Shown here: positions 2,412 through 24,781 of the stretch, piece by piece
Layout: the number at the start of each line of letters is the position of its first letter
How positions within the stretch are numbered: position 1 is the stretch's first letter
Assembly (NCBI GenBank): GCA_965208835.1
Contig: OZ242358.1
Location: 1,504,001-1,568,000, forward strand
DNA length: 64,000 bases
DNA from: Candidatus Latescibacterota bacterium
Lineage (GTDB): Bacteria > Latescibacterota > UBA2968 > GCA-2709665
Reading direction: 5' to 3'
Position numbers and translations under genes: made by a program
The notes under the pieces: generated by a model
Database searches by the model: none
Told to the model about the DNA's origin: nothing
Seen by the model: the letters and a program-made list of their open reading frames with translations, nothing else

Positions 2412-3485
2412 ATGTCGATTGCAGGACGTGTCAAAACGGCGAGAGACGAACTGGATGCCCACGTCAGGGAAACAGTTGACTGGCATTTCAGTCCGGACAC
2501 GGGGTGCCCGTTCTGGCTGGAATTCGCCGCAGGTCTGGATTTCGATCCGCGGCGGGAGATCGGCGGTTATGCGGACTTGAAGATCCTCGGTCATTTTCAG
2601 GACGACTGGCTGCGCGGCGGTCCGGTGCGCCGGTGGATTCCCGGGGGGAGCGCAGGGAAACGGACGTACGTCTTCGAAACCGGTGGATCAACAGGAGTGC
2701 CGAAGTATCGGATCAGCCAGGAAGACTTCCACGTCGACTACGAGATGTTCAGCAGGCACCTTTCGGACGAGACGTTTCCAAGGGGCGCCGACTGGCTGAT
2801 GCTGGGGCCCACGGGCCCGAGGCGGCTGCGGCTGGCGGTTGAATACCTCTGCCAGATTCGCGGCGGCATCTGTTTCCTTGTGGACCTGGACCCCAGATGG
2901 GTCAACAAGCTGATCGCGCGCGGCGCCCTACAGGAGCTGGATCTCTATAAGGCCCACGTGATCGATCAGGCGTTGACCATTCTGCGTGCGAACGACAATG
3001 TGAAGTGCATGTTTACGACGCCGAAGCTTCTGGAAGCGATCTGTGAAAAGATCTCATTGAAAAAGGCCGGCATTTCGGGGATATTTTGCGGGGGGACCGA
3101 GATGGATGCGCAGTTCAACCGTTTCGCCAGGGAGGAACTGATTCCCGGAATCGACTTCGTGCCGACGTATGGAAATACGTTGATGGGACTGGCCTGTTCC
3201 AAGCCCCTGGAACCTTCGGACAACTTCGCCATTACCTATTATCCGCCCCTCCCGCGTGCCGTGATCGAACTCGTGGACCCCGACGATCCTGACGTACCGG
3301 TGGAATACGGCGCCGTCGGGCGGGTGATGCTGACGACCCTCACCCGGGAGTTCTTCATGCCGCGGTTCCTGGAAAGGGACGAGGGCGAGCGGGCGGAACC
3401 GATCGAGGCATTTCCCTGGGACGGGGTGAGGAATCTGGGTCTGTTCTCGGAAATGCAGGAGTCGGTCGTGGTCGGCGTATATTAG
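2412..3485 (+). CDS. EhpF-like/LuxE-PaaK superfamily short adenylate-forming enzyme
   Basis: WHFSPDTGCPFW start, P-loop FETGGSTGVPK, YGNTL, and the ERD near the C-terminus resemble phenazine-modifying EhpF. At 357 aa it appears to lack the ANL C-terminal domain. Confidence 0.75.
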   Translation: MSIAGRVKTARDELDAHVRETVDWHFSPDTGCPFWLEFAAGLDFDPRREIGGYADLKILGHFQDDWLRGGPVRRWIPGGSAGKRTYVFETGGSTGVPKYRISQEDFHVDYEMFSRHLSDETFPRGADWLMLGPTGPRRLRLAVEYLCQIRGGICFLVDLDPRWVNKLIARGALQELDLYKAHVIDQALTILRANDNVKCMFTTPKLLEAICEKISLKKAGISGIFCGGTEMDAQFNRFAREELIPGIDFVPTYGNTLMGLACSKPLEPSDNFAITYYPPLPRAVIELVDPDDPDVPVEYGAVGRVMLTTLTREFFMPRFLERDEGERAEPIEAFPWDGVRNLGLFSEMQESVVVGVY

Positions 3486-3496
3486 CGGGAAGGTAT

Positions 3497-4939
3497 ATGA
3501 TCCGGGAGGATCGCGTGACCCATATCCCGGTTTTACGTGCAGGGAATCCATACACGAGTCTGGACGTCCAGGAAGTTCCGCACGTTCAGACCGGAGAACC
3601 GCTGGTGCGGGTCAGCCAGGCGAATCCGGGTCTGATCGCGAAAGACCTCAACGCCGCGGACGCGAATAAGCGAGCTCTGGAAGCGCTGAGCGTTTCCGAT
3701 CTTGCAGCCATCACGCGAAGGGCAGGCCGGCTGTTCGCAGAGGCGGAGCTTCCGCTTGATGGCCTGTCGCAATCGCCAGGGGACTATGTCCGCCAGGTCT
3801 CGGGGACAACGGGAATTCCTGAAACCCTTTGCCGGGAGAATCTGGAAAAAATCCGGTTGGCCTGCAGCCAGATCGACGACGTGCTCGCCGGTCTGACGCG
3901 TGAGCTGGATCTGTCGGTGCTGGACAGGGGGTGGGCTTCGGAAAACGGCAGGCCGTTGAGCTATGTCTGCCAGACCGACGCGCTTGGCGCGGTATTGCCG
4001 AGCAATTCGCCGGGCGTGCATTCGCTCTGGGTCCCGGCAACGGCACTGAAGGTGCCTCTCGTGCTGAAACCCGGCAGGGAGGACCCGTGGACGCCGTACC
4101 GGATTGCACAGGCGTTTAACGCCGCGGGATGTCCGGGCGAAGCGTTTGGCATTTATCCCACAGGGCACGCGGGCGCGAACGAAATCCTCCTGCGTTGCGG
4201 GCGCTCTCTCTTGTTCGGAGGCGGCGCCACGGTCGCGCCGTGGCTGCACGATCCGCGGGTATCGATCCATGGTCCGGGCCGCAGCAAGGTGGTTCTGGGA
4301 GAAGACCTGGTCGACCGCTGGGAGGACTTCCTGGATGTGATCGTGGTTTCCATCGCGGCCAACGGAGGGCGTTCGTGCATCAATGCGTCCGGCGTCTGGA
4401 CGCCCGCGTACGGACGCGAGATTGCCGATGCGATTGCGCAGCGCCTCGCACAGATCGAGGCGCGGCCGCTGAGCGACCCGGAAGCCCGGATTGCCGCGTT
4501 TGCCAATCCGGCCGCGGCTACCGGGCTTTCCAATATCATCGACGTCCATCTGAAGCGCGGCGGCGCGGAGGACCTGACCGCGGGCCTGCGCGGGAGCCGG
4601 CTTGTCGAACTGGACGGCCTGACGTTCCTGAACGCGACCCTTGTATGGTGTGGCTCCCCCGAACACCCCCTGGCGAATACCGAATTCCTGTTCCCCTTCG
4701 CGAGCGTGGTCGAGGCGCCGCAGGCGGAGGTGGTCCAGGGGATCGGGCCCAGCCTGGTGGTCACGGTGTTGACAGAGGATGAAGACCTCGTCGGAGACTT
4801 GCTGAATTCACCCCACGTGGATCGACTGAACGCGGGGCCGATTCCCACGAACCGGATTTCATGGGACCAGCCGCACGAAGGCAATTTGTTCGATCACCTC
4901 TACCGTCAGCGGGCGTTTCAGTTCGCGCACGGCGCTTAG
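3497..4939 (+). CDS. ALDH-fold acyl-thioester/acyl-CoA reductase (EhpG/LuxC-like)
   Basis: LPSNSPG, LKPG, catalytic Cys in NGGRSCINAS, EFLFPF. The usual general-base ELGG is replaced by IHGPG. Confidence 0.8.
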   Translation: MIREDRVTHIPVLRAGNPYTSLDVQEVPHVQTGEPLVRVSQANPGLIAKDLNAADANKRALEALSVSDLAAITRRAGRLFAEAELPLDGLSQSPGDYVRQVSGTTGIPETLCRENLEKIRLACSQIDDVLAGLTRELDLSVLDRGWASENGRPLSYVCQTDALGAVLPSNSPGVHSLWVPATALKVPLVLKPGREDPWTPYRIAQAFNAAGCPGEAFGIYPTGHAGANEILLRCGRSLLFGGGATVAPWLHDPRVSIHGPGRSKVVLGEDLVDRWEDFLDVIVVSIAANGGRSCINASGVWTPAYGREIADAIAQRLAQIEARPLSDPEARIAAFANPAAATGLSNIIDVHLKRGGAEDLTAGLRGSRLVELDGLTFLNATLVWCGSPEHPLANTEFLFPFASVVEAPQAEVVQGIGPSLVVTVLTEDEDLVGDLLNSPHVDRLNAGPIPTNRISWDQPHEGNLFDHLYRQRAFQFAHGA

Positions 4940-4949: not shown

Positions 4950-6065
4950 ATGGAGCCTTTCGACCACCATCCTTCGCCCCGGGTGATCTTCGGGGCGGGC
5001 ACGCTGGCGCGGCTCGCGGACCTGGCGGGTGGACTGGGAGGCGGGCGAATCCTGCTCGTGACCGATCCGGGCATCGTCAACGCCGGGATCGCTGACAGGG
5101 CGCTGTCCCTGCTGCGGGGAGCGGAACGAGATGTCTGTCTGTTCGACGGCGTGGACGAGAACCCGACGACGGCCCACGTGGACGCGGGGGTGGAGGCGGC
5201 TGCGGCGCACGGCGGGATCGGTCTCATCGTGGGCCTGGGCGGCGGCAGCGCAATGGATTGCGCCAAGGGGATCAATTTCATCCTCACCAACGGCGGACGG
5301 ATGGAGGCCTACTGTGGGATGGGCAGGGCGCGCCGGCCGATGCTGCCGTCGATAGGCGTTCCGACGACCGCGGGGACAGGCAGCGAAGCCCAGTCCTACG
5401 CGTTGATCTCAAGGCCGGATACGCACGAAAAGATGGCCTGCGGCGACCTCAAGGCGCGTTTTCGCGGCGTCATTCTGGATCCCGATCTCACCGCGAGCGC
5501 ACCGGGACATGTGGCCGCCGCGGCGGGGATCGACGCCATCGCCCATGCCGTGGAAAGCTGTGTGTGTACGCGTCGGAACCCGGTTTCGCGCATGTACGCG
5601 CTGGAGGCGTGGCGTCTGCTCGCATCGGGATTCGAAGAGGCGCTGGCGCCGGCGGCCGGCGGGGAAGCCAGGTCGGCCATGCTCCTGGGCGCGCATTTCG
5701 CTGGAGCGGCGATCGAGAATGCCATGCTGGGCGCCGCCCACGCCTGCGCCAACCCGCTTACGGCCCGTTACGGAATCCCACACGGCGTCGCGGTGGGCTT
5801 AATGCTTCCGTCGGTGATCCGGTTCAATGGAGAAACAGATGGCGCGCTCTACGGAGGCTTCGGGTTGACCGCGGGTGCGCTGGCGGAACGGATCGAAGGG
5901 TTCAGGCGGACGGCGGATCTGCCCGGCTGCCTCGGCGATCTCGGGGTTGAACGGGATCGGCTTCCGGAATTGGCGGCCGAGGCGGCGACCCAGTGGACCG
6001 GGACGTTCAATCCGCGGCCGGCCCGCGAAGCCGACTTTCTGGCGTTATATGAAGAGGCATATTGA
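4950..6065 (+). CDS. Iron-containing alcohol dehydrogenase
   Basis: GLGGGSAMDCAK, PTTAGTGSE, DAIAHAVE, HACANPL and PHG metal ligands. Confidence 0.93.
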   Translation: MEPFDHHPSPRVIFGAGTLARLADLAGGLGGGRILLVTDPGIVNAGIADRALSLLRGAERDVCLFDGVDENPTTAHVDAGVEAAAAHGGIGLIVGLGGGSAMDCAKGINFILTNGGRMEAYCGMGRARRPMLPSIGVPTTAGTGSEAQSYALISRPDTHEKMACGDLKARFRGVILDPDLTASAPGHVAAAAGIDAIAHAVESCVCTRRNPVSRMYALEAWRLLASGFEEALAPAAGGEARSAMLLGAHFAGAAIENAMLGAAHACANPLTARYGIPHGVAVGLMLPSVIRFNGETDGALYGGFGLTAGALAERIEGFRRTADLPGCLGDLGVERDRLPELAAEAATQWTGTFNPRPAREADFLALYEEAY

Positions 6066-7206
6066 GGTTCGCGCGAGGCAAAGAGCAGGGTGCATATGGA
6101 ACATTTTGCTCCCTTTGTGCATCTTGTACGTACCGGTTTCCGTCTGCGTCGCCGGGGAGACGTCATGGCCGCAGTTCAGAGGCGACGCGCAATCCACGGG
6201 ACACGCGCGGGATTCGCTGCCCGACAGCCTGGTTGTCCTGTGGGCTGCCCGGGTGCCGGAAGGCATCGAGTCCACCGCGGCGATCCGTTATGGAATGGTT
6301 TTCGTTGGCGGGCTGGACGGAAACCTCTATGCATTTGATTTTGTAACCGGGGCGTTGAAATGGAAGTATTCCGCCGGCGGAGAAATAAAGGCTTCTCCGC
6401 TGGTGGCGGGTGACCGGGTTTTCTTCGGAGACGGTAACGGCGGCTTTCACGCCGTGGACGCGTCAACCGGGAAGGGGTTGTGGACGTACCGGACCGAAGG
6501 GGAGATCATCTCTTCCGCCGCGTCGTACGAAGGCCGGGTGATCTTCGGGTCCTACGATCAGTTCCTCTACTGCCTCACGATGGAGGGCGGGAGCCTGGTG
6601 TGGAAGGTGGAGACGGAGGGATACGTTCATGGGTCCCCGGCCCTTTGGGGCGGACGCGTACTCGTCGCCGGTTGCGACGGTCTGCTGCGCATGGTGAACG
6701 CGGCTGCAGGAGACGAAGTCTCACGGGTGGAACTGTCCGACTACGTGGCGGCCAGTGTTGCCGTGCGCGGCGGACGGGCCTACGCGGGTACGTTCGGTAA
6801 CCAGGTCATGGGTCTGGACCTGTCGGCGGAGAAGGTCCTGTGGCGGTACGAGCACCCCAGCCGCAAGTTTCCATTTTACGCGTCCCCGGCGGTCACGGAA
6901 GAACACGTGATCGTCGCCGGGCGTGACAGGATGGTGCGAGCGCTTCGCCCCGGCAGCGGCGGTGTGTTGTGGATTCGTGCGTTTCGTTCCCGGCTGGACT
7001 CGTCGCCGGTGGTTGCGGGCGACCGGGTGTTCGTGGGCACGACCGGCGGGAGGATTCTGGCGCTGGATCTGAAGACGGGCGAACCGGGATGGGAATTCCC
7101 GACCGGTTCGGCGGTGCTGGCTTCGCCGAGCGTGGCCGGCGGCAGGCTCGTAATCGGAACGGCTGACGGGACTTTGTACTGTTTTGGCAGTGAGGCGGGA
7201 GAATGA
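6049..7206 (+). CDS. Secreted PQQ-like (BamB-type) beta-propeller protein
   Basis: Hydrophobic leader, WPQFRG, repeated AxDxxTGxxxW and SSP motifs. ATG 6049 overlaps the upstream gene. Confidence 0.85.
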   Translation: MKRHIEVRARQRAGCIWNILLPLCILYVPVSVCVAGETSWPQFRGDAQSTGHARDSLPDSLVVLWAARVPEGIESTAAIRYGMVFVGGLDGNLYAFDFVTGALKWKYSAGGEIKASPLVAGDRVFFGDGNGGFHAVDASTGKGLWTYRTEGEIISSAASYEGRVIFGSYDQFLYCLTMEGGSLVWKVETEGYVHGSPALWGGRVLVAGCDGLLRMVNAAAGDEVSRVELSDYVAASVAVRGGRAYAGTFGNQVMGLDLSAEKVLWRYEHPSRKFPFYASPAVTEEHVIVAGRDRMVRALRPGSGGVLWIRAFRSRLDSSPVVAGDRVFVGTTGGRILALDLKTGEPGWEFPTGSAVLASPSVAGGRLVIGTADGTLYCFGSEAGE

Positions 7207-8549
7207 GTACCCAGGTTCACATACCGGAACCCGCGACCTCCAGGAAAGCGTGGAAAGAAACGGCGGTCGGCAGCGTCTTCGTGTCCAACTACCCTCCGTA
7301 TTCGTTCTGGCGGGATGAGCACAATTCCCGCGTCGAGGCGATGCTGGAGGCTTCGGAACCTTCGGCGGGGGCGGTTCCGCTCGGGTTGTATCTTCATGTC
7401 CCGTTCTGCCGGAAACGCTGCAAGTTCTGTTATTTTCGCGTGTATACCGATCGCAACAGTTCCGAGATCCAGGTCTATCTGGATGCGCTGGCCAGGGAGG
7501 TGGAAAACTACGCCACGCTGCCCAGGATCGACGGACGCAGCCTGCAATTCGTCTACTTCGGCGGGGGGACGCCGTCGTATATCAGCGTGAAACACCTGGA
7601 GGCGCTGGTGGATCGGCTGAAGGCCGTGTTGCCGTGGGACGCCGCGGAGGAGGTCGCGTTCGAGTGCGAACCGGGCACGCTCACACAGCCGAAGGTAGCA
7701 GCCATTCGCGAAATCGGGGTCACGCGATTGAGCCTGGGCCTGGAGAATCTGAATGACGAAATCCTGAAGGAGAACGGCCGGGCGCACGTCGGCAAAGAGA
7801 TCTACCGGGCCATGGACTGGGTGAAGAAGCAGGCGTTCGAACAGGTGAACGTAGACCTGATTTCGGGGATGGTGGGCGAAACGTGGACGACGTGGAAGGA
7901 GACCGTTCAGGGGACGATCGATCTGGACCCCGACAGCGTGACGATCTATCAGATGGAACTGCCGTTCAATACGACGTATTCGAAGGCGCTTCTGGATGGT
8001 AACGGTGTGCCAGTTGCAGACTGGGAGACGAAGCGCGCGTGGCACGCCCATGCGATCGACGCGTTCGGCGAGGCCGGCTACGAGATCTCGAGCGCCTATA
8101 CGATGGTCAGGAAGGGTCGTCCGAAGCGGTTCGTCTACCGGGACGCGCTGTGGCGGAGCGCCGACCTCATCGGCGCCGGCGTCGCGTCGTTCTCGCACGT
8201 GGGCGGTATACACTTTCAGAATCACACACAGTGGGACTCCTACGTCGATGCCTGCATGCACGGGCGGCTGCCGTTGAACAGGTCTTTCGTTCCTACTGAC
8301 GAGGAACGCCTCGTGCGCGAGATGATCCTGCAACTCAAGCTGGGCAGGATCGAGACCGGTTATTTCAAGGACAGATTCAACGTGAATATCCTGGAGCGGT
8401 TTGGCGAGGCCTACGGAAGACTCAGGGATTTCGGCATGCTGGAATTCGATTCGCAGAGTATCACTCTGAGCCGGGATGGACTCTTGCGCGTCGATCAATT
8501 GCTCCCCGAATTTTACGACGAGAAATATCGCAATTCGCGCTATACATGA
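7203..8549 (+). CDS. HemN-like (class C-type) radical SAM enzyme
   Basis: YLHVPFCRKRCKFC (CX3CX2C), YFGGGTPS, RLSLG, HemN-type C-terminus. ATGA overlap with the upstream gene. Confidence 0.88.
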   Translation: MSTQVHIPEPATSRKAWKETAVGSVFVSNYPPYSFWRDEHNSRVEAMLEASEPSAGAVPLGLYLHVPFCRKRCKFCYFRVYTDRNSSEIQVYLDALAREVENYATLPRIDGRSLQFVYFGGGTPSYISVKHLEALVDRLKAVLPWDAAEEVAFECEPGTLTQPKVAAIREIGVTRLSLGLENLNDEILKENGRAHVGKEIYRAMDWVKKQAFEQVNVDLISGMVGETWTTWKETVQGTIDLDPDSVTIYQMELPFNTTYSKALLDGNGVPVADWETKRAWHAHAIDAFGEAGYEISSAYTMVRKGRPKRFVYRDALWRSADLIGAGVASFSHVGGIHFQNHTQWDSYVDACMHGRLPLNRSFVPTDEERLVREMILQLKLGRIETGYFKDRFNVNILERFGEAYGRLRDFGMLEFDSQSITLSRDGLLRVDQLLPEFYDEKYRNSRYT

Positions 8550-8680
8550 GGCATGCCGAATTTCACGCCTTTCCTGGACAGAAACCGACCTGGGACCGGA
8601 GTGGTTGGCGTTTCCTGGAGCGAGGGCATCCAGGTTATGGGTCTCCTGACAGCGGTTTAATGACGTCCAATGAACCATAT

Positions 8681-8770
8681 AACGCGTGGTCATTGAGCTT
8701 GTCGAAATGCCCGCTATTCAAAAGCAATTCGATCCTTCGCCGGCCCTTCGACAAGCTCAGGGGACGGCTC
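8681..8770. repeat. REP/REPIN-like palindromic element (TGAGCTTGTCGAA...TTCGACAAGCTCA)
   Basis: 13-bp inverted repeat at 8694-8706 and 8747-8759. Homologous ~90-bp copy at 53159-53246. Confidence 0.75.
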
Positions 8771-8921
8771 GGCTTCTGCGACTCCTCCTTGTCAAGGGGG
8801 AGTGATTGGTCCATCAAGCCGGCGCGGGCGTTTCGTGCCACCCATTTGATTGCGGCTGAGCATAGCGAAGCCGCGCAAGGTACGCCATTACTGTAGTTTC
8901 ACTTTCTTGCGGAGTCAGTCT

Positions 8922-10136
8922 ATGAAATACAGGTTTTATTTGGTGTTCGCATTTGTGCTGTGCTTTTCTCCCGCTCACGCGGATTGGCCTCAATGGCTGG
9001 GCCCGAACCGAACGGGCATTTCGACCGAAACGGAATTCCTGAAGGTCTGGCCGAAGGACGGTCCTGCGGTTATGTGGAAGAGGAACCTCGGCAAGGGGTT
9101 TTCAGGGATCTCGGTGGCGGATGGTCGTGTGTTCACCATGTTTGCGGAGGGTGACGACGAGTTCGTCGTCTGTCTGAATGAGGAATCGGGAGACGAAATC
9201 TGGCGGTTCAGGACGGGAGGCATGTTCGAAGAATGGCAGGGGGGCGACGGACCCCGGTCGCAGCCGACGGTGGACGGAGAGCGGGTATACGTCCTCGGCG
9301 CTGAGGGTCGGCTGTACGCGCTGAAGGCGGCAAACGGCGATACGATCTGGACCGTGGACCTTGTCGACGGCCTGGGCGGCCGGTTTCCCAGGTTCGGGTT
9401 TTCGACTTCGCCGCTGGTGGAAGGCGACTTTCTGTTCCTGGAGGCGGCGACGCGTAATGGTACGTTTCTGGCGCTGCGCAGGAAAGACGGTAAAGTCGCC
9501 TGGGCTTCCCAGAACGACGTGGCTTCCTATTCCTCGCCCATCGCCCTGGATCTCGCCGGTGCGCGTCAGGTGGTCTATTTTTCCGGAGACGCCGTCGTCG
9601 GGCTTTCTCCGGTCGACGGCTCCCTGTTCTGGCGGTTCCCCTGGAAGACGTCGTACGACCTGAATATTGCAACGCCGATCTTCGTACCGCCGGACCAGAT
9701 CTTCATTTCCTCGGGTTATGATCACGGCGCGGCTTTGCTGCGGATCGAGTCAGACGGCGACGGGTTCTCGGCGACCCGGGTCTGGCAGAGCCGGCGGATG
9801 AAGAACCATTTCGGCACGTCCGTGTTGGTCGGGGACTATATCTACGGATTCGATAACGCCATCCTGAAGTGTATCGAAGCACGGACCGGAAAAGAGCAGT
9901 GGAAACATCGCGGGTACGGCAAGGGGGCTTTGATCTACGCCGACGGGCACCTCGTCCTGTTGAGTGACAACGGGAGACTGGCCCTGGCGCAGGCAACGCC
10001 CGACGGATTCAGGGAAAAGGCCGGCGTGCAGGTGCTCGACGGCCGCAGCTGGACGATGCCGACCCTGGCCAACGGCCGCGTGTTCGTCAGGGATATGCGG
10101 AAAATCGTCTGTCTGGATCTCCGGGCCGGTGGTTAG
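8922..10136 (+). CDS. Secreted PQQ-like beta-propeller protein
   Basis: Signal peptide ending AHA, DWPQWLGPNR, Trp-docking repeats, YSSP, terminal IVCLDL. Confidence 0.88.
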   Translation: MKYRFYLVFAFVLCFSPAHADWPQWLGPNRTGISTETEFLKVWPKDGPAVMWKRNLGKGFSGISVADGRVFTMFAEGDDEFVVCLNEESGDEIWRFRTGGMFEEWQGGDGPRSQPTVDGERVYVLGAEGRLYALKAANGDTIWTVDLVDGLGGRFPRFGFSTSPLVEGDFLFLEAATRNGTFLALRRKDGKVAWASQNDVASYSSPIALDLAGARQVVYFSGDAVVGLSPVDGSLFWRFPWKTSYDLNIATPIFVPPDQIFISSGYDHGAALLRIESDGDGFSATRVWQSRRMKNHFGTSVLVGDYIYGFDNAILKCIEARTGKEQWKHRGYGKGALIYADGHLVLLSDNGRLALAQATPDGFREKAGVQVLDGRSWTMPTLANGRVFVRDMRKIVCLDLRAGG

Positions 10137-16662: not shown

Positions 16663-16663
16663 G

Positions 16664-16885: not shown

Positions 16886-18178
16886 ATGCGAATTGCCTAT
16901 ATCGCCGCCGGCGCGGCGGGGATGTATTGCGGGAGTTGCATTAACGACAATACGCTGGCATCGGCGCTCAGGCTGAAGGGAGTTGATCTGGCGCTGATTC
17001 CAACGTACACGCCGCTGCGGACCGATGGTCCCGACGCGAGCATCGACCGGGTGTTCTACGGTGGAATCAACGTCTATCTGCAGCAGAAGCTGGCGTTTTT
17101 TCGCCACGCGCCGGAACTCGTAGACCGCCTGATGAACGCGCGTACGCTGCTGAATTCGCTTTCCTGGTTCAGCGGATCCACGCGCGCTGAAGGTTTGGGG
17201 GCGCTCACGGTCTCGATATTGAAGGGGGAAGAGGGCGCCCAGAGAAAGGAACTTGAAAAGCTGGTTCGATGGCTAGAAGACGACCTGCGGCCGGACCTTG
17301 TTCATCTCACGAACTCCATGTTTCTGGGCATGGTACGTGAGATGAAGCGCGAATTGGGCGTTCCTGTTCTGTGTTCCGTTCAGGGGGAGGAGGTCTTTCT
17401 CGACGGGTTGGTCGAACCGTATCGAAACGAGGCGTTGAATGCGATGCGCGACCGGGCGCGCGACGTCGACGCGTTTGTGGCAACGTGCGACTGGTACGCG
17501 GCGTCGATGGCCGCGTATCTGAATGCGCCGCGCGATCGCTTCCATGTGGTTCCACTGGGCATCAGCATGGAGGGACACGGCACCTGGGAGCGGGCGCTGC
17601 CGGAAACCCCATTCACCGTCGGCTATATGGCCCGCATCGCGCCGGAGAAGGGACTGCATCTTCTGGCGGATGCCATGGGGCGGCTGGCGGAACAGGTTGG
17701 AAGCAGGAACATCAGACTGTTGGCGGCGGGTTATCTGGGTGGGCGTGAGAAGGCTTATTTTCATGAGGTGGTGTCGCTGATTGAGTCCCGCGGGCTTTCC
17801 AGTGTCTTCGAGTACCGGGGCGAGGTGGACCGGAAACAGAAGATCGAATTCCTGAACAGCGTCCATGTCCTGTCTGTGCCGACGCCGTACGAGGAGCCGA
17901 AAGGGTTGTTCGTACTGGAGGCGCTGGCTAACGGAACGCCCGTGGTTCAGCCGCGTCACGGCGCATTTCCGGAGCTTATTGAGCGCACCGGAGGAGGCAT
18001 CCTGGTCGATCCGGATTCCCCGGGGGCGCTGGCGGACGGGTTGTCCCGAATGATGAGAGACAGGGAGGCCCGGGAAGCCATGGGGAGAAACGGCCGCGCG
18101 GCCGTGCACCGGACGGCCAGCGACGCGTGCATGGCCGACGCCATGCTGGACGTCTATCGACGTTTCGTCGCGGGATGA
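16886..18178 (+). CDS. Glycosyltransferase family 4 with N-terminal GMYCGSC motif
   Basis: GT-B features ARIAPEKGL and EPKGLFVLEALANGTPVV. Confidence 0.9.
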   Translation: MRIAYIAAGAAGMYCGSCINDNTLASALRLKGVDLALIPTYTPLRTDGPDASIDRVFYGGINVYLQQKLAFFRHAPELVDRLMNARTLLNSLSWFSGSTRAEGLGALTVSILKGEEGAQRKELEKLVRWLEDDLRPDLVHLTNSMFLGMVREMKRELGVPVLCSVQGEEVFLDGLVEPYRNEALNAMRDRARDVDAFVATCDWYAASMAAYLNAPRDRFHVVPLGISMEGHGTWERALPETPFTVGYMARIAPEKGLHLLADAMGRLAEQVGSRNIRLLAAGYLGGREKAYFHEVVSLIESRGLSSVFEYRGEVDRKQKIEFLNSVHVLSVPTPYEEPKGLFVLEALANGTPVVQPRHGAFPELIERTGGGILVDPDSPGALADGLSRMMRDREAREAMGRNGRAAVHRTASDACMADAMLDVYRRFVAG

Positions 18179-18239: not shown

Positions 18240-18740
18240 ATGCCGGCCGAACAGGCATCGACGCCAGGGCTGACGTGGCTGATATTCGCCGCCATGACGG
18301 TAGGATCGTGGGGACTGTACGGGATTTTTCTGCATACCGGGCAGATTGCAATGGCCGATCCCGTGAACGGACGGTACAAAGCGTTTCTGCTCGTGGGCGT
18401 GGCATATCTGTTGACCGCCGTAATCGGTTCAATGGTCGTTCTGTGGTTGAACGGCTCGGACTGGTCGTTTCCCGCGCGCGGGTTCACCTGGTCTCTGCTC
18501 GCCGGTACCGTGGGTGCGATCGGCGCATTCGGCGTCCTGCTCGCGTTCGGCGCCCGTGGCACGCCTGCCGTGGTGATGTCGATCGTATTCGCGGGCGCTC
18601 CCATTGTAAACGCCGTAGTGTCGATGGCGGTACACCCGCCCGCCGGTGGATGGGGCGCGTTGAACTGGCAGTTCGTGCTGGGTATCGTACTCGCGGCGAT
18701 GGGGGGGTGCCTCGTAACGCTCTTCAAGCCGGCGTCGTGA
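18240..18740 (+). CDS. Small integral membrane protein (about 5 TM, DMT/EamA-like)
   Basis: Five hydrophobic segments, WGLYG near the N-terminus, GGAGG RBS. Confidence 0.75.
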   Translation: MPAEQASTPGLTWLIFAAMTVGSWGLYGIFLHTGQIAMADPVNGRYKAFLLVGVAYLLTAVIGSMVVLWLNGSDWSFPARGFTWSLLAGTVGAIGAFGVLLAFGARGTPAVVMSIVFAGAPIVNAVVSMAVHPPAGGWGALNWQFVLGIVLAAMGGCLVTLFKPAS

Positions 18741-18750
18741 AGCAGCAGAG

Positions 18751-18785
18751 GCAGCGATCAGCCGTCAGCTCTCAGCAAACAGCAA
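18751..18785 (+). repeat. Heptamer array (TCAGCNN)n
   Basis: gcagcga tcagccg tcagctc tcagcaa acagcaa. Inverted relative at 27975-27998. Confidence 0.65.
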
Positions 18786-18823
18786 AAGGCGAAAACCGTA
18801 TCGCGTGACGTCAGCGCTATTGT

Positions 18824-18930
18824 CCGGGCGCCCACAAGGGACGCCCCTACCAATGCAACATCGGCTCGGAAACACGAGAGATCAATTCAAGGACCTTTGG
18901 TTTGTAGGGGCGTCCCTTGTGGGCGCCCGG
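18824..18930. repeat. GTAG-type REP pair (perfect 27-bp inverted repeat)
   Basis: GTAGGGGCGTCCCTTGTGGGCGCCCGG at 18904-18930 and its exact reverse complement at 18824-18850. Confidence 0.88.
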
Positions 18931-18968
18931 CCTCCGGCGGGTTGGAAGGGTCTCTGAGAGGAAGTAAT

Positions 18969-19415
18969 ATGCCGTGTGAATTCAATACCACGCGACGAGT
19001 GGAATTTTCGGATACGGATATGGCCGGGATCGTGCACTTTTCCCGGTTTTTCGTTTTCATGGAAGCGGCGGAGCACGCGTTCCTGCGTTCGCTCGGCACC
19101 AGCGTGGCTGGCACATTGGAAGGACGAAGGGTCGGGTGGCCCCGGGTGGGCGCGTCGTGCGACTATCTCCATCCCGCCCGGTTCGAAGACATGCTGGACG
19201 TGCATTTGAAGGTGATACGAAAAGGGACCAGTTCGATGACATACGGGATTGAATTCCGGCGCGGCGACGTCCTTATTGCCCGGGGCCGGTTGAGTACGGT
19301 GTTCTGTGAGTGCGTCCCGGGGCGTCCGTTCCGCTCCACACCCATCCCGGATTCTGTCGCGGATCAGATTGAGGAATCCCCTGAACAGGAGGGGGAGGAT
19401 GACGCTGAGGGCTGA
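18969..19415 (+). CDS. Hotdog-fold acyl-CoA thioesterase (4HBT/YbgC family)
   Basis: VEFSDTDMAGIVHFSRFFVFME and PARFED motifs. Confidence 0.9.
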   Translation: MPCEFNTTRRVEFSDTDMAGIVHFSRFFVFMEAAEHAFLRSLGTSVAGTLEGRRVGWPRVGASCDYLHPARFEDMLDVHLKVIRKGTSSMTYGIEFRRGDVLIARGRLSTVFCECVPGRPFRSTPIPDSVADQIEESPEQEGEDDAEG

Positions 19416-20058
19416 GCGTGTCTCGAAGCGATACGGGGATGTGACGGTTCTCAGGGACGTCTCGATTGAAGTTTCGCGAGGCCAGTCCCTTGCGGTCGTC
19501 GGGCCCTCAGGATCGGGAAAGAGTACGCTGCTGCACGTATTCGGTACCCTGGACAGACCGACCTCCGGCCGTGTGACCGTCGACGGCCGGGACCCCTACG
19601 TCCTTCCTGAGAAGGACCTGGCGCGCTTCCGAAACCGCGTGATCGGATTCGTCTTCCAGGACCACCATCTGCTGCCCCAGTATTCGGTGCTCGAAAACGT
19701 GATGATGCCGACGCTGGCGTTCCGAGATGGAGGGGCGGACGCCGCTGAACGGGCGCGGGACCTGATCGAACGTGTCGGGCTCGGGCATCGAACCAACCAC
19801 CGCCCTTCCGCCCTTTCGGGCGGTGAACGCCAGCGCGTCGCGGTGGCTCGGGCGCTGGTCAACCGGCCGGCGCTGCTGCTTTGCGACGAGCCGACGGGCA
19901 GCCTGGACCGGGCCCGGGCCGATGAAGTCGGCGATCTGCTTTTTGAGCTGCACGCGGAACAGGAGACCATCCTCATCGGCGTCACGCACAGCCTGGAGCT
20001 GGCCGCGAGATTTGAGCGCCGGATGGCCTTGCAGGAGGGAACGTGCGTCGAAGCCTGA
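19399..20058 (+). CDS. ABC transporter ATP-binding protein (LolD/MacB-like)
   Basis: [28 protein letters not shown]. Overlaps both neighbouring genes. Confidence 0.92.
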
Positions 20059-23000
20059 CGTTTTACTGGCGCATCCACCTGCTGGTGATGCTCGCGGTTG
20101 CCGCGGCGGCCGCCGTCCTCACCGGCGCCCTGCTGGTGGGCGATTCGGTGCGGGAAAGCCTGCGTGACCTGACCGTCGACCGGCTTGGCGACATTGACCA
20201 TGCGCTTGTTGCGGACCGCTTCTTCCGTGCGGGTCTGGCCCGGGATATCGAGGCGGCGGGGGAGGATGTGACGGTTGTTCCGGCGGTGACGCTCAGGGGC
20301 ACGGCAGTGCATGGTAGTGCAGGTACGCGGGCGACCCGCGTACGGATTCTGGGCGTCGATTCGCGATTCGGTGATCTCTTCCAGGCGTCGTTTCCCGACC
20401 TCGACCGCCGCGGGGTGTACACGCCGCTTGTCGTAAACGAGTCCCTTGGACGGGAACTGGATGCCAGGGTTGGCGACGCGATTCTGCTGTCCTTTGAGCT
20501 TCCCGACAATATTCATCGGGAGTCGCTCTTCGGCCGTGACGAGGTCTCGGAGTCGATATTGACCGTGCGTGTGCGGATTGCGGCCATGCTGCCCGACCGC
20601 GGGGTGGGTCGCTTCGGTTTGCGCTCGAGCCAGGATGTGCCGCTTAATGCGTTTGTTTCCCTGATCGAATTGCAGAACGCGATGGGACTTCCGGATCGGG
20701 TCAACACGCTTCTGGCGACGGTTCGGCCCGGCGCCGCGGCCGGATTGAGGTCCGCGCTTTCCCGCGCGGTCGTGCTGGACGACCTGGGACTGTCGATACG
20801 CGAAGGAAGGGGCTTTTTTTTTGTCGAGAGCACACAGTTCGTCCTCAAACCCCACCTGTCCCGGACGATTGTGGGCCTGGCGGAAGAAATGGGGATGCCG
20901 CGGCTTCCGATCCTGACCTACCTGGCGAACGCCATCGAAGCGGGGGACCGGACGTTGCCGTATTCAACGGTCGCGGCAATTGACCTCGGGAACTTTGGAC
21001 CCGCGCAGCTCCTGAACGGAAATCCGGCGCCGGCGCCCGGCGACGGGGAAATTCTGCTGAACGCCTGGGCGGCCGCGGACCTGAACGCCAGGACCGGCGA
21101 TCCGGTCACCATCGAATATCTCGAAGTCGGGCCTGGAGACGCGCTGATTCCAAGGCGCGAGACATTCAAACTTGCAGGCGTGGTCGCGATGACGGGATTG
21201 GGCGCCGATTCGCTGCTGGCGCCCAGGTTTCCGGGATTGCAGGATGCAGACGATATGCACGCGTGGGACCCTCCGTTTCCCATCGATCTCCAGCGCATCA
21301 GGCCCAAAGACGAAGCCTACTGGGACGCCCACCGGGCGGCGCCCAAAGCCCTGGTATCCGCCTCCACCGGCCAACGACTGTGGCGAAACCGGTTCGGCAA
21401 TCTGACGTCCGTCAGGATCGGGCCCGCGCACGGCATGGACGTCACGAGTTCGGCCCGGCGATTTCGCTCCGGAATGCGGGGCGCGCTTTCGCCCGAGTCC
21501 ACCGGCCTGGTATTCCGGCCGGTAAGGGAAGAGGGGATGGCCGCTTCGTCAGGCTCGACCGATTTCCGATGGCTCTTCGGCGGGTTCAGTCTGTTTCTGA
21601 TCGTCTCCGCCGCGTTGCTTGTGGGCCTTCTCTTCCTGCTCGGGGTGGATCAGCGCGCCGGAGAGGTGGGCGTGCTGACGGCGTCGGGATTCACCGCCAG
21701 GGCCATCCGCGGCCGGTTTATGGGCGAGGCGATCTGGCTGGCGGGTCTTGGCGGCCTGGTCGGGATTGCAGGAGGACTGGCGTACGGTTGGGTCATGCTG
21801 GCCGGTCTGCGTACGTGGTGGGTCCCGGCGGTTGGAACCACGGAACTCTATCTGCACGTGAACGGATCCAGCCTGGTGGCGGCATTCGCGGTCTCACAGG
21901 TTGTGGCACTGCTCGCAATCTGGATGACGGTCCGGCGATTGTCCCGCATGCCCGCGCGTGCCCTGCTGTCCGGCAGCGTTTGTGCGGCAACAGGCGATCA
22001 TGGAGGGCGGGTCCGGGTCTATGTCCTCGGAAGCCTGGCATTGGCCACGGCCTGTCTCGCGGCGGCCGCACAGGCGGACCGGCAAGCGGCGGCCGCGCTG
22101 TTTTTCGGGTGCGGGGCATTCCTTCTCACATCGGGTCTGGGCCTGCTTTCGATGTGGCTTCGCGGCCGGGGAAATGCGGCGGCGAGGGGCATCTCGAGCA
22201 TGGGCGTGCGGAACAGCGCGCGAAATCCCGGCCGGAGCATGCTGTGTGCGGGGTTGATCGCGAGCGCCTGTTTCGTGGTTGTGGCGGTTGGCGCCCATCG
22301 CCGCGCAGACGTCAACGGGGATGCGCTGAACAGCCGGACGTCGGGCGGCGGCGGGTTCCAGCTCGTTGTCGAAACGGATGCGCCGCTATATCACGATCTC
22401 AATTCGGAGGACGGCCGGTTCGAGCTGGGGTTTAACCCGGAGGATGCGCCAATTCTGGACAGGGCGAGGTTCATGCCGTTCCGTGTCCTGCCGGGCGAGG
22501 ACGTGAGTTGTCTGAATCTGTACAAGCCCAGCCATCCCCGGGTCCTGGGCGTGCCTGAAGCCCTGATGAGACGGGGCGGTTTCTCGTTTGACCGGCTGTT
22601 GGAGGAAGCGGATGAGCCATGGACTCTATTGGCGGGGGGCGCGGAACAGGACGTGATTCCCGCGTTCGGAGATGTAAACTCGGTGACCTGGATCCTGCAC
22701 AGGAAGCTGGGCGACGAAATCCCGATGCGATCCCATACAGGCGAGGTCGTCCGGCTGAGGCTTGTGGGTCTGCTGAAGAACAGTATCTTCCAGAGTGAAT
22801 TGCTGGTGTCCGAGGCGAATTTCACCGCCCATTTCCCCGATCGGAGCGGCTATGGCTATTTTCTGGTCGAGACCGACCGACCCCGCGAATTGGGTGCGCT
22901 CCTGGAGCGGAGGTTGCAGGACGCCGGTCCGGATGCGACGACGACGGCGGCCAGGCTGGCTGGCTTCCGAGCGGTGGAGAACACGTATCTGTCCACGTTT

Positions 23001-23363
23001 CAGACACTCGGCGGGTTGGGGGTGCTTCTGGGTACGTTCGGTCTTGGGATCGTGATGGTACGCAACGTCGTCGAACGCCGGGGCGAACTCGCGGCGCTTC
23101 GGGCGCTCGGGTTTCGCAGGTCGTCTCTATCGGGACTCCTGTTCATGGAAAACGGGTTCCTGATGGCAACGGGCATGGCCATCGGGGCAGCGGCCGCGAT
23201 CGTGACGACAGTGCCCCTCGCTTCGGGCGGCGAATTGCCCTGGCTTTCTCTTCTGGCAACGCTGGGTCTTATACTCATTACGGGCATGGCCGCGGGCGCC
23301 GCGGGGATTTTTGCCGCGCTGAGGACCCCGCTGTTGCCGGCATTGAAGCGGGACGGCGCGTAG
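20043..23363 (+). CDS. Large ABC permease, duplicated FtsX/MacB type (1106 aa)
   Basis: Two FtsX-like TM clusters (QRAGEVGVLTASGF and ERRGELAALRALGF) with large periplasmic domains. Confidence 0.88.
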   Translation: MRRSLTFYWRIHLLVMLAVAAAAAVLTGALLVGDSVRESLRDLTVDRLGDIDHALVADRFFRAGLARDIEAAGEDVTVVPAVTLRGTAVHGSAGTRATRVRILGVDSRFGDLFQASFPDLDRRGVYTPLVVNESLGRELDARVGDAILLSFELPDNIHRESLFGRDEVSESILTVRVRIAAMLPDRGVGRFGLRSSQDVPLNAFVSLIELQNAMGLPDRVNTLLATVRPGAAAGLRSALSRAVVLDDLGLSIREGRGFFFVESTQFVLKPHLSRTIVGLAEEMGMPRLPILTYLANAIEAGDRTLPYSTVAAIDLGNFGPAQLLNGNPAPAPGDGEILLNAWAAADLNARTGDPVTIEYLEVGPGDALIPRRETFKLAGVVAMTGLGADSLLAPRFPGLQDADDMHAWDPPFPIDLQRIRPKDEAYWDAHRAAPKALVSASTGQRLWRNRFGNLTSVRIGPAHGMDVTSSARRFRSGMRGALSPESTGLVFRPVREEGMAASSGSTDFRWLFGGFSLFLIVSAALLVGLLFLLGVDQRAGEVGVLTASGFTARAIRGRFMGEAIWLAGLGGLVGIAGGLAYGWVMLAGLRTWWVPAVGTTELYLHVNGSSLVAAFAVSQVVALLAIWMTVRRLSRMPARALLSGSVCAATGDHGGRVRVYVLGSLALATACLAAAAQADRQAAAALFFGCGAFLLTSGLGLLSMWLRGRGNAAARGISSMGVRNSARNPGRSMLCAGLIASACFVVVAVGAHRRADVNGDALNSRTSGGGGFQLVVETDAPLYHDLNSEDGRFELGFNPEDAPILDRARFMPFRVLPGEDVSCLNLYKPSHPRVLGVPEALMRRGGFSFDRLLEEADEPWTLLAGGAEQDVIPAFGDVNSVTWILHRKLGDEIPMRSHTGEVVRLRLVGLLKNSIFQSELLVSEANFTAHFPDRSGYGYFLVETDRPRELGALLERRLQDAGPDATTTAARLAGFRAVENTYLSTFQTLGGLGVLLGTFGLGIVMVRNVVERRGELAALRALGFRRSSLSGLLFMENGFLMATGMAIGAAAAIVTTVPLASGGELPWLSLLATLGLILITGMAAGAAGIFAALRTPLLPALKRDGA

Positions 23364-23482
23364 CGGCCGATTCGAGAGTGCGGCGACAATAGGTTTTCAG
23401 ATTTGGAATCGCGCGTCGTATATTCAATTGAGGATACGCAGATCCGGCGTTCTCCGTCTTTCCAAGGCGAAAGGAGCCTGGA

Positions 23483-24781
23483 ATGAATCGAATGATTTTA
23501 TCCCTGACCGCATTCTGTCTGGTTGTCGCATCCGGACCGGCTGCGTCGAACTGGCCTCACTGGCGTGGACCGAACCGGAACGGGCTCGTCGACGGGAGTC
23601 CACCCGTACAGTGGAGCGAACAGAAGAATATCCGATGGAAGGCGCCCATTCCCGGCCTGGGTCACGCAACGCCGATTGTCTGGGGCGATCGTATCTTCGT
23701 GCAGACCGCGGTGAGGACTGACAAAGTCGTGGCGGATAACGGCAGGGGAAGGCGCCGTCCCCCGCCCAATCTGCTTCAGTACAAGGTCCTGGCGCTGGAC
23801 CGGCGGACCGGGGAAACCGTCTGGGAAAAGACGGTTCGGGAGGCCCGGCCTCACGAGGGGATGCACCGGACGGCGTCGTTTGCGTCCCCATCGGGCATTA
23901 CGGACGGAGAAAATCTCTTTGCGTATTTTGGATCACAAGGGCTCTATTGCCTCGATATGGACGGCAATCTGAAGTGGGAGAAAGACCTGGGCAAATACTG
24001 GAGCAGAGCCGCGTTCGGCGAGGGGGCTTCGCCAACGGTCCACGGCAACACCCTGGTGATCAACTGGGACCACGAAGGGGATTCGTTCATAGTCGCGCTG
24101 GACAAGAAAACGGGAAGGGAACTCTGGCGGAACGGCCGGGACGAGGTCACGTCGTGGTCCTCACCCGTCACGGTGGAATACGGCGGCCGGACCCAGGTGA
24201 TCGTCAGCGCTTCGCGCCGCACACGGAGCTACGACCTGGAGACCGGCGCGCTGATCTGGGAATGCGGCGGGCTGGGGACGAACGTGATCCCCACGCCGCT
24301 ACATGCGGACGGGGTGGTGTACGTGGCCAGCGGTCACAGGAGTCCCGCCATGCAGGCCATCTCGCTGGACCGCGCAAAGGGGGACATTTCGGGTTCGGAC
24401 TCGGTGTTGTGGTCCATCACCCGGGATACGCCCTATGTGTCTTCACCCCTGCTACACGCCGGCCGGTTGTTCATGCTGAAAGGCAGGGGCGCGTTCCTGT
24501 CCTGCTATAACGCGGGTACCGGCAAGCCGGTTTTCGGACCCAAACGCCTGGACGGGACGGGCTTCATCTACGCGTCGCTGGTCGGCGCGGACGACCGCGT
24601 GTATATTACCGATCTCGAAGGCAGGACGCTCGTCGTCAGGAACAGCCCTGAGTTCGAAATCCTTGCGACGAATACCCTGGATGAAGGGAGCGGGGCGTCT
24701 CCGGTGGTTGTCGGAGACGCGCTCTATCTGAGGGGACGCAGCCACCTCTACTGTATCGCTGAAGACCTGACGAACCGTTAG
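23483..24781 (+). CDS. Secreted PQQ-like beta-propeller protein
   Basis: Signal peptide, NWPHWRGPNRNG, ALDKKTGRELW, WSSP, terminal HLYCI. Confidence 0.88.
   Translation: MNRMILSLTAFCLVVASGPAASNWPHWRGPNRNGLVDGSPPVQWSEQKNIRWKAPIPGLGHATPIVWGDRIFVQTAVRTDKVVADNGRGRRRPPPNLLQYKVLALDRRTGETVWEKTVREARPHEGMHRTASFASPSGITDGENLFAYFGSQGLYCLDMDGNLKWEKDLGKYWSRAAFGEGASPTVHGNTLVINWDHEGDSFIVALDKKTGRELWRNGRDEVTSWSSPVTVEYGGRTQVIVSASRRTRSYDLETGALIWECGGLGTNVIPTPLHADGVVYVASGHRSPAMQAISLDRAKGDISGSDSVLWSITRDTPYVSSPLLHAGRLFMLKGRGAFLSCYNAGTGKPVFGPKRLDGTGFIYASLVGADDRVYITDLEGRTLVVRNSPEFEILATNTLDEGSGASPVVVGDALYLRGRSHLYCIAEDLTNR

Follow-up and report, generated by a model that had tools for sequence, protein, structure and literature searches.

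What does a run of aromatic-acid enzymes make when its genes are interleaved with those of secreted beta-propellers, and do the propellers belong to the same system? The question is raised by contig OZ242358.1 of a Candidatus Latescibacterota bacterium (assembly GCA_965208835.1), of which a stretch of 64,000 nt, hereafter called the window, was analysed. Nucleotides 2412..24781 of the window hold a cluster of fifteen genes, lettered here A to E and G to P. An original prediction had described fifteen co-oriented genes of named families and no polyketide synthase, nonribosomal peptide synthetase, terpene cyclase, phz or pqq core gene. All fifteen lie on the + strand, their families are, by Pfam and NCBIfam scans, those it named (the curated NCBIfam cut-offs serving as thresholds for family membership), and none of the families said to be missing was found in the 24 open reading frames (ORFs) scanned. 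Most likely, the cluster converts a simple aromatic acid to a halogenated, sugar-carrying compound, which is passed to secreted propellers that are nearly confined to cluster-bearing genomes. Put in full, this is a pathway leading from cytoplasm to periplasm, whose phenolic product or phenolic glycoside would be delivered to periplasmic BamB-like propellers as its end users; we give this reading a probability of roughly 0.45.

Co-occurrence was scored in 252 genomes, 151 of them a sample of the window's own phylum and 101 a sample of the Planctomycetota, for which kinship among the genomes is not given. Matches to the PQQ_2 domain were called strong at an E-value of at most 1e-20, and the counts are of domain matches, not of genes. 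In the phylum sample, orthologues of K were detected in 83 genomes (six others gave weak K-like matches), of J in 81 and of E in 82, and the three were found in the same genera: 14/14 genomes of genus g1, 20/20 of g4 and 22/22 of g16, as against 0/8 of g15 and 0/5 of g20. The 83 cluster-positive genomes contain 3–11 strong PQQ_2 matches with a median of 7. For the 62 cluster-negative genomes the median is 0.5, with no strong match in 31, one in 25 and two in 4; the exceptions with at least three matches are G048 (3) and G088 (8), the latter an assembly that is 81% complete, lies in 810 contigs and carries E. Four genera contain both kinds of genome and all four point in the same direction, the positive members having 6, 5, 4, 7 and 7 matches against 2, 2, 1 and 2 in the negative members of g14, 7 and 5 against 1 in g8, 3 and 3 against 0 in g6, and 5 and 7 against 0 in g13.

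Among the Planctomycetota, K-like proteins were found in 28 genomes and J-like proteins in 18, all of which are within the 28. The K-positive genomes have a median of 6 strong matches (range 1–20) and the 73 K-negative genomes a median of 0, with 49 having none and two having at least three. The difference between positive and negative genomes is not just a matter of the cluster's own copies, since in the genome under study one of six strong matches lies inside the cluster; of the other five, three are stand-alone propellers and two are fusions of Metallophos with a propeller, in unrelated neighbourhoods. A paralogue located 760 kb from the cluster, P2, has orthologues in 76 of the 151 phylum genomes, every one of them cluster-positive. 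Its distribution shows the same within-genus split as the cluster, and in family f3 it is found directly after O.

Propellers are present in every version of the cluster, three of them in the window. Family f3 has D, a P2-type copy and G three times in tandem. In family f2 there are two further copies upstream of A and another between O and P, and in family f10 K-N-O is accompanied by one D-like and one P-like copy. In the Vicinamibacterales the number is at least four, and one planctomycete has four more within 20 kb. The two Metallophos-PQQ_2 fusions of this genome (731–797 aa; G000:C1:1188429-1190822 and 4608080-4610275) are situated outside the window. The residual PQQ_2 matches that were inspected in cluster-negative genomes are in ORFs of about 670–760 aa, a fusion-type length, and the Metallophos-fused type of propeller appears to be independent of the cluster.

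The arrangement of the genes is also conserved. With the PaaK-like protein I, 79 loci were fetched from species-representative genomes; 28 of these have at least 10 of the 15 genes, 12 have 6–9, 10 have 2–5 and 29 have the ligase only. All 28 gene-rich loci, which are labelled Latescibacterota or, for some sponge bins, Gemmatimonadota, are colinear with the window in both order and orientation, the nearest sharing 92–100% identity per protein. This gene arrangement is far beyond chance. Partial and rearranged sets are found in Poribacteria and Vicinamibacterales. In the planctomycete loci L096 and L098 the order is A-B-C-D-E-X-J-K-M-L-I-N-O, where X is a protein gene that is dealt with below, and L099 contains the same 13 genes rearranged; 12 of the 15 window genes thus occur in one planctomycete cluster, with A 53–59% identical. 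D stands between C and E in Latescibacterota, in Poribacteria and in two of the three planctomycete loci. Cultured Roseimaritima sediminicola JC651, a planctomycete, carries orthologues of E, I, J, K, L and O, which are scattered over different contigs, and one of X too. In a Binatia genome with nothing but the ligase in common, E, K, L and O are all missing and no propeller match is strong. Seven genes (A, B, I, K, L, M and O) are each single copy in the genome under study. Neighbourhood comparison and profiling, proposed together with the original prediction as a check on it, therefore agree, in that the genes co-occur in two phylum samples and co-cluster across four phyla: this is a real gene cluster, held together in at least four bacterial phyla. 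The coupling of pathway to propellers which that prediction had proposed is well supported by comparative genomics, by conserved synteny on the one hand and all-or-none co-occurrence on the other.

The three propellers of the window are D (about 6049..7206; the cluster's core propeller; Beta-prop_ACSF4, 189.9 bits, cut-off 133; PQQ_2), G (about 8922..10136; PQQ_2, E-value 1.5e-42, with a signal peptide) and P (23483..24781; PQQ_2, E-value 8.6e-31), the last following the permease gene O. Each has an N-terminal hydrophobic signal or anchor, and the anchor of D is present in all the orthologues inspected. The structural models of D and P (predicted local distance difference test 90.4 and 76.2, respectively) are both eight-bladed. 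D finds its best folds in the designed Cake8 propeller, BamB, tetrathionate hydrolase and YxaL, and the best match of P is BamB (E-value 4.7e-17); compared with BamB, YxaL and tetrathionate hydrolase, the two share the fold at Foldseek E-values of 1e-15 to 1e-27 and 14–26% identity. None is a BamB by the family threshold (TIGR03300; 285.2 bits needed), D scoring 164.3, G 68.7 and P 39.9 bits. The cluster propellers are unlike these three relatives in having 3–20 paralogues per genome and in being tied to a small-molecule pathway. D contains few invariant polar residues across phyla. P, which is 47–51% identical in Vicinamibacterales and family f10, possesses the motifs PHExxH and WDH (residues 123-128 and 195-197), which are invariant in Latescibacterota, Vicinamibacterales and f10 and absent from P2, G and D; they may form a metal or catalytic site. 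In one Vicinamibacterales locus a rhodanese gene (L045:11259-11585) is found directly after the PaaK-like ligase gene and before a propeller gene; the propellers themselves have tetrathionate hydrolase among their best matches in fold.

Turning to the enzymes, gene A (2412..3485) specifies a truncated adenylating enzyme of 357 aa. Its product matches the solved EhpF (3l2k/3hgu) with an E-value of 2.5e-41 over residues 15-344, that is 330 residues, gives only a partial AMP-binding Pfam match, lacks a C-terminal ANL domain and adjoins an aldehyde dehydrogenase (ALDH)-family protein, which together are the marks of the EhpF-type atypical ANL adenylases. The adjoining protein, B (3497..4939; PF00171, E-value 7.2e-13), has an ALDH fold, matches solved aldehyde dehydrogenases weakly, and is probably an acyl-adenylate or thioester reductase, the EhpG-like partner of A. 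The genes ehpF and ehpG, the latter of the ALDH family, adjoin in phenazine operons, and the role proposed for their products is the reduction of an aromatic carboxylate. The A-B order is that of ehpF-ehpG in the Ehp system, which makes the phenazine D-alanylgriseoluteic acid, and the pair is conserved in Latescibacterota and Planctomycetota. Unlike Ehp, the cluster follows A-B with a dedicated iron-containing alcohol dehydrogenase, C (4950..6065; PF00465, E-value 6.6e-43; PF25137, E-value 1.4e-30; every NCBIfam match under its cut-off), and is without phenazine core genes among the ORFs scanned; because of this absence the substrate must differ from that of Ehp.

Gene I (13021..14298; PF14535, PF00501) encodes an aryl- or acyl-coenzyme A (CoA) ligase of the PaaK family, related to the solved phenylacetate-CoA ligase 4r1l (E-value 1.6e-58) and well under both PaaK cut-offs (TIGR02155, 202.6 bits with 646.3 needed; NF041878, 233.7 bits with 700 needed). 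M (about 18969..19415; PF03061, PF13279) is a 4HBT or hotdog acyl-CoA thioesterase, whose YbgC-type matches are under their cut-offs; the family takes its name from 4-hydroxybenzoyl-CoA thioesterase.

The product of J (14308..15570) is a flavin-dependent halogenase. Its best solved relatives are all halogenases (8zop, E-value 4.5e-66; 3e1t, 2.8e-60; PltA, 3.9e-57; CmlS, 1.6e-49), and its score against the CmlS equivalog NF033113 is 207.6 bits, under the cut-off of 900. Hallmarks of flavin-dependent halogenases are the motifs GxGxxG and WxWxIP and a conserved active-site lysine. GGGPAG, WFW[YSF]IP and a lysine at position 73 are present without exception in the 39 aligned sequences of J, so that the protein carries the motifs of the class; from its position, Lys73 is inferred to be the catalytic lysine.

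E (7203..8549; PF04055, HemN_C) is a HemN-like radical S-adenosylmethionine (SAM) enzyme, similar to solved HemN (E-value 4.6e-30) and to the methyltransferase NocN (E-value 5.2e-23), with the CxxxCxxC motif in 41 of 42 aligned sequences. Against the HemN equivalog TIGR00538 it scores 178 bits (cut-off 324.95), and a housekeeping HemN is ruled out by its distribution, 82 of the 151 phylum genomes and the same genera as J and K. Maturation of a quinohemoprotein amine dehydrogenase by QhpD, QhpG and QhpF was likewise considered and rejected: J scores 140.7 bits against a QhpG cut-off of 240, E is of the HemN type and not of the SPASM type, and between E and G no small ORF occurs other than a repeat fragment that relatives do not have.

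K (16886..18178; PF00534, E-value 1.2e-28) is a glycosyltransferase of family 4 (GT4), its C-terminal half resembling solved MshA-type GT4 enzymes (E-value 1.8e-14). Residues 13-21 of K contain a CGxC motif of the M-Y-C-G-S-C type, present in 36 of 38 orthologues, the remaining two being gapped at this point; the motif occupies the site of the usual GT4 glycine-rich loop.

The nature of the starting acid is suggested by relatives of the window. Protein X, of 175–190 aa, is encoded between E and J in planctomycetes and between E and M in Vicinamibacterales, and stands beside E in three planctomycete and six Vicinamibacterales loci. Its profile aligns with E. coli UbiC (hhalign E-value 3.5e-4, probability 37%, 111 columns), with shared motifs in the same order, and with the solved protein 2nwi (E-value 8.1e-4), which we take to be a DUF98 member; among its 2888 homologues many are named chorismate-pyruvate lyase by JGI. 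From these likenesses, X would be a chorismate lyase with a chance of about two in three, in which case 4-hydroxybenzoate would be the starter. Both X and the Pfam family Chor_lyase were unmatched in the present genome, which is 97.8% complete; the E. coli control was positive for Chor_lyase.

Instead of X, the window genome has receptor and importer genes. H (10907..13024) encodes a TonB-dependent receptor that exceeds the cut-off of the siderophore-receptor subfamily TIGR01783 (251.4 bits, 223.5 needed), and its stop codon overlaps the start of I, coupling H translationally to the ligase. It is present in 28 of 28 well-covered Latescibacterota loci and in Poribacteria, and was not found in the clusters of Vicinamibacterales or planctomycetes. 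Beyond P, on the same strand, are a TAXI solute-binding protein (25011..26027, +; TIGR02122, 249.6 bits) and a fused TRAP permease (26029..27939, +; TIGR02123, 546.3 bits), each over its own NCBIfam cut-off. TAXI follows P by 21–47 bp in all five loci whose flank extends that far and follows J in the poribacterial locus L032, so placed that TAXI-TRAP is a probable importer linked to the cluster. A second version from Poribacteria carries a symporter of the SSF family, and its X-like ORF is no more than a weak match (E-value 3.2e-4). The pattern is complementary, versions with the lyase being without H and importer and this genome the reverse, and it suggests that the starter is of the 4-hydroxybenzoate type, synthesised in some lineages and obtained by salvage in this one. 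This fits the earlier proposal that the cluster builds or salvages an aromatic molecule; the aromatic-acid substrate is plausible, and the probable chorismate lyase narrows it to an acid of the 4-hydroxybenzoate type.

Known pathways begin in a similar manner. In ambigol biosynthesis, chorismate lyase gives 4-hydroxybenzoate, which is activated and then halogenated ortho to the phenol by a flavin enzyme. The early steps of the ambigol, Bmp5/Bmp6 and BaaA/BaaB routes are alike in that 4-hydroxybenzoate is activated and the ring then halogenated. Several differences set the cluster apart from them: it has no carrier protein, a CoA thioester being inferred in its place; J is of the PltA/CmlS-like group, unlike Bmp5; the window genome has no lyase; and the cluster adds carboxylate reduction, a HemN-like radical SAM enzyme, a GT4, an ABC (ATP-binding cassette) system of type VII and propellers. 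The planctomycete BaaA/BaaB genes for a dibromo-anisic acid were considered as the same system and set aside, BaaB being described as Bmp5-like in the accessible part of the source (bioRxiv 10.1101/723874).

Three genes remain for transport, in addition to H. L (18240..18740) is a small membrane protein with five transmembrane (TM) helices, a DMT/EamA-like half transporter; it gave no Pfam match, and its look-alikes in the Atlas bear the name of DMT permeases (score 0.97). No member of the cluster is better conserved, identity being 80–100% in Latescibacterota, 72% in Poribacteria and 62–67% in planctomycete clusters, and the K-L pair is still adjacent in the poribacterial locus L095, where the rest of the cluster is scattered. 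N (about 19399..20058) is an ABC ATPase like LolD (TIGR02211, 257.4 bits, 307.75 needed) and YbbA (200.1 bits, 336 needed). O (20043..23363) is a duplicated FtsX permease with two FtsX domains and MacB_PCD, scoring 21.7 bits against LolC/E (TIGR02212, cut-off 362.45). A hydropathy scan predicted ten TM helices for O, with periplasmic domains at 33-512 (between TM1 and TM2, about 480 aa) and 752-985 (between TM7 and TM8), and the predicted topology matches that of a YbbP-like type VII ABC permease. For YbbP, PMC12646458 describes ten TM helices, the periplasmic domains lying between TM1 and TM2 and between TM7 and TM8, and places its partner TesA between these two domains; a periplasmic partner protein is, it states, typical of type VII ABC transporters.

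Because a propeller gene follows O in all four lineages, a propeller is the candidate partner of O. A complex prediction for the first periplasmic domain of O (33-512), one of its two, with P (23-432) gave no support for a contact, at 0.01 against a mark of 0.32, and weighs neither for nor against the pairing. With YbbAP-TesA, LolCDE-LolA, MacAB-TolC and FtsEX-EnvC (PMC12646458), the cluster shares a separate ATPase and a neighbouring gene for a periplasmic protein, and the predicted ten-TM topology of its permease, with its large periplasmic domains. It is unlike YbbAP-TesA, LolCDE-LolA and MacAB-TolC in that a BamB-like propeller is the candidate partner, in place of an esterase, LolA or an adaptor. 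That N/O might be the housekeeping Lol system was rejected, the LolD and LolC/E cut-offs being missed and separate LolA and LolD-like genes being present in the window. These belong to an envelope block at 52318-63207, with LolA (52318-52986), a LolD-like ATPase (56294-56974), ClpB, BamA (59765-62080), Skp/OmpH and FabZ; since it holds separate Lol genes, N/O is taken to be a paralogue of the housekeeping system.

The steps of the favoured pathway can now be set out; the family assignments are established, and the reactions and their sequence are proposed on that basis. A 4-hydroxybenzoate-type acid would be made by X in planctomycetes and Vicinamibacterales and imported here, probably via H and TAXI-TRAP. 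The PaaK-like ligase I would convert it to the CoA thioester (aryl-CoA), J could then halogenate the tethered phenol, and the thioesterase M would free the acid, whose carboxylate A, B and C may reduce to the aldehyde or alcohol. The HemN-like E would modify the ring or side chain, probably by C-methylation, and K would attach a sugar. L is the putative carrier of the product across the inner membrane, after which N/O, as a YbbAP-like type VII ABC system, would present it in the periplasm to D, G, P and their paralogues encoded elsewhere, and these propellers would bind or process it.

A number of points weigh against this pathway. Neither a carrier protein nor a flavin reductase is encoded in the cluster, and the closest solved relatives of J include carrier-dependent halogenases such as PltA. 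The profile matches of X are weak, as the probability of 37% indicates, and Pfam gave no match to X at E-values up to 5; with X absent from the window genome, the starter here would be assigned by analogy. H is a lineage-specific and non-core member. The PQQ_2 counts include the propellers of the cluster itself, related genomes are not independent, and part of the co-occurrence could come from shared ancestry or lifestyle. Finally, BamB and YxaL, which D and P resemble, are to our knowledge protein-binding scaffolds with no known small-molecule ligand.

The gene set does have a counterpart in print. Loureiro et al. define a "Halo_AMP" pseudoclass of orphan clusters in sponge metagenomes by a flavin halogenase together with an AMP-binding enzyme (bioRxiv 10.64898/2026.08.03.742642), a combination that is present here in J with A and I. 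From the portion of the preprint that could be consulted, these clusters contain PaaK-like adenylases, PQQ-like domains at high frequency and genes for glycosyltransferases, thioesterases, radical SAM enzymes, TonB receptors and ABC transporters; their hosts are Latescibacterota, Poribacteria and Acidobacteriota, they have no MIBiG match and their products are unknown (bioRxiv 10.64898/2026.08.03.742642). The clusters treated there are diverse and mostly sponge-host-specific, and the focus is on a group termed CC A, with P450s. Relative to that portion of the preprint, three things are new: the complete cluster of the planctomycetes, the alternation of lyase and importer, and the co-occurrence with propellers across whole genomes. 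A literature search returned no paper linking the gene set to a product, and association with PQQ-like domains in the Loureiro preprint only. The original statement that no characterised pathway has this gene set stands, the class being in print as an orphan only.

The sponge setting bears on the main rival, in which the product is a secreted bioactive compound, an allelochemical or antibiotic of the Halo_AMP type that is pumped out of the cell and perhaps taken up again, and the propellers are accessory, serving for example in processing or self-protection. Halogenase-adenylase clusters with such genes are enriched in sponge metagenomes according to the same part of that preprint (bioRxiv 10.64898/2026.08.03.742642), the DNA datasets that contain the present stretch are mostly sponge metagenomes, and a chorismate lyase with a halogenase makes brominated phenolics in a planctomycete, the BaaA/BaaB pair, as far as the accessible text of that report goes (bioRxiv 10.1101/723874). 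For such a product, however, content and sequence are unusually uniform (A 53–59% and L 62–67% identical between phyla), the tested genes are single copy, Roseimaritima retains all of the cluster genes looked for there although they are dispersed, and an all-or-none link with 3–20 scattered propeller paralogues is not expected of an accessory role. We consider a released bioactive compound unlikely.

The same link invites a second alternative, in which the cluster makes a cofactor or prosthetic ligand, a small molecule other than pyrroloquinoline quinone (PQQ) that is required by the secreted propellers of the D, G and P types. Analogues exist in the pqq genes with their quinoproteins and in heme d1 synthesis with the propellers NirS, NirN and NirF. 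Strict co-occurrence with a propeller family of many copies in both phylum samples, and with the unlinked P2, speaks for it, as do the invariant His/Glu/Asp motifs PHExxH and WDH of the P subfamily in three lineages and the failure of any protein of this genome to pass the PqqE cut-off (best score 59.1 bits, 381.35 needed). The searches for PqqC and PqqE had no positive control over cut-off, however, the PqqC control giving no match at all. D and P resemble in fold proteins without a known cofactor, no PQQ dehydrogenase is among their best 50 listed fold matches, and D, G and P score 84.9, 32.7 and 26.6 bits against a PQQ dehydrogenase cut-off of 480.05 (TIGR03075). The scarcity of invariant polar residues in D and the occurrence of the PQQ_2 family in E. 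coli and archaea argue in the same sense, and we know of no precedent for halogenated glycosides as cofactors. A required cofactor or ligand is quite unlikely, and it is just as doubtful that this molecule would be a halogenated, glycosylated 4-hydroxybenzyl-type compound serving the secreted BamB/PQQ_2-like propellers. If true, it would explain their joint presence or absence with the cluster in Latescibacterota and Planctomycetota as well as, probably, in Poribacteria, Vicinamibacterales and Verrucomicrobiota. Taken as a whole, the original interpretation held for a co-inherited unit, an aromatic acid and coupling to propellers; its further suggestion of a redox cofactor is not supported, given the BamB-like folds of D and P and scores of all three propellers under the PQQ-dehydrogenase cut-off.

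The transport genes admit a different division of labour, an envelope machine in which a glycolipid or other glycoconjugate is made and flipped by K and L and drawn out of the inner membrane by N/O, the propellers are scaffolds or chaperones of envelope assembly in the periplasm and the aromatic enzymes only decorate the lipid. That N is closest to LolD and YbbA, that O has YbbP topology and that the propellers are BamB-like in fold are all consistent with it, and in family f10 (L091) K-N-O-P stands as a module on its own, with a D-like propeller, K-L being the tightest unit of the cluster. An acyltransferase, fatty-acid or polyprenyl enzyme is nonetheless not among the conserved genes of the cluster, the flavin halogenase and the PaaK-like ligase indicate an aromatic substrate, LolA, LolD-like and BamA genes are present separately in the genome, and the system was not found in many relatives that share the cell plan; an envelope machine is improbable. 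Very improbable is uptake and breakdown or detoxification of an environmental aromatic or halogenated compound, leading from the receptor by way of propeller enzymes in the periplasm and the TRAP importer to CoA ligation, thioesterase and redox reactions, or its metallophore variant, in spite of a receptor over the siderophore cut-off, TAXI-TRAP or SSF importers adjoining the cluster, the occurrence of PaaK-type ligases with hotdog thioesterases in phenylacetate catabolism too and an enzyme, tetrathionate hydrolase, with the fold of the propellers, since biosynthesis is indicated by the intact signature of the halogenase, by the GT4 and by an ABC system of exporter type, a Pfam scan revealed no ring-cleavage or ring-oxygenase genes, and the planctomycete and Vicinamibacterales versions have the probable chorismate lyase in place of H and the importers.

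On the delivery pathway preferred here, the cluster bears on a wider group of proteins. PQQ_2/BamB-like propellers are among the most expanded families of Planctomycetota, Acidobacteriota, Poribacteria and Latescibacterota, and most are without known function. A defined subset of them is now tied to one conserved pathway of 12–15 genes by synteny in four phyla and all-or-none occurrence in the 252 genomes, together with a chemical hypothesis, a 4-hydroxybenzoate-derived product that would be halogenated, reduced and glycosylated. If this product is a ligand or cofactor, the propeller expansions would be explained; if it is released, it would be a widespread, so far unrecognised organohalogen produced by symbionts of sponges as well as by soil and marine bacteria. 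In R. sediminicola JC651 a cultured carrier exists.

The tight packing noted in the original prediction is borne out by 8 of the 14 junctions, which overlap or are at most 12 bp wide: A-B (11 bp), B-C (10 bp) and I-J (9 bp), the overlaps at C-D, M-N and N-O, and 4-nt overlaps at D-E and H-I. Three wide gaps, E-G, G-H and J-K, are strain-specific insertions. The first is filled with fragments of dispersed repeats and measures only 27–34 bp in relatives. An ORF at 8546-8896 was considered as a gene, a precursor peptide or a small subunit of the QHNDH-like kind and rejected, as it consists of repeat fragments and relatives leave no more than the 27–34 bp just given. This ORF and another spurious one at 15743-15988 are fragments of dispersed repeats with tblastn matches at five or more other places in the genome each, and they resemble small mobile or REP-like insertions inside the operon.

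The G-H gap, 24–260 bp in relatives, holds at 10164-10783 a purine-rich 82-bp tandem repeat (5.6 copies with 97% matches by TRF), and overlapping TRF rows of 80 and 124 bp carry the array on to 10783; the local GC and AT skew is due to this repeat. In the J-K gap, 15–27 bp in relatives, lies a gene for a four-helix bundle (16050-16535; TIGR02436, "23S rRNA intervening sequence protein"), which was matched in only 4 of the 79 loci (L002, L003, L006 and L009) and is therefore a variable insertion and not a member of the cluster. Upstream, GFO/IDH/MocA genes (164-2409) were rejected as members, being kept before A within the genus only (L090); in family f2 propellers are found there (L089). A scan of window positions 1-30000 for riboswitches and other RNA families gave four matches with E-values of 0.19–0.52, all far under their gathering scores, and no RNA dataset with a match to positions 12500-22400 was listed.

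Downstream, the region 28036-36427 encodes, on the minus strand, a carboxyl transferase, a family III CoA-transferase and a seven-bladed lactonase, and further contains genes for two dioxygenases of the PhyH family, a TIM barrel resembling xylose isomerase and a HAD hydrolase. Members of the PhyH family are also encoded close to an unlinked propeller (L080) and to the K-L pair of the poribacterial genome (L095).

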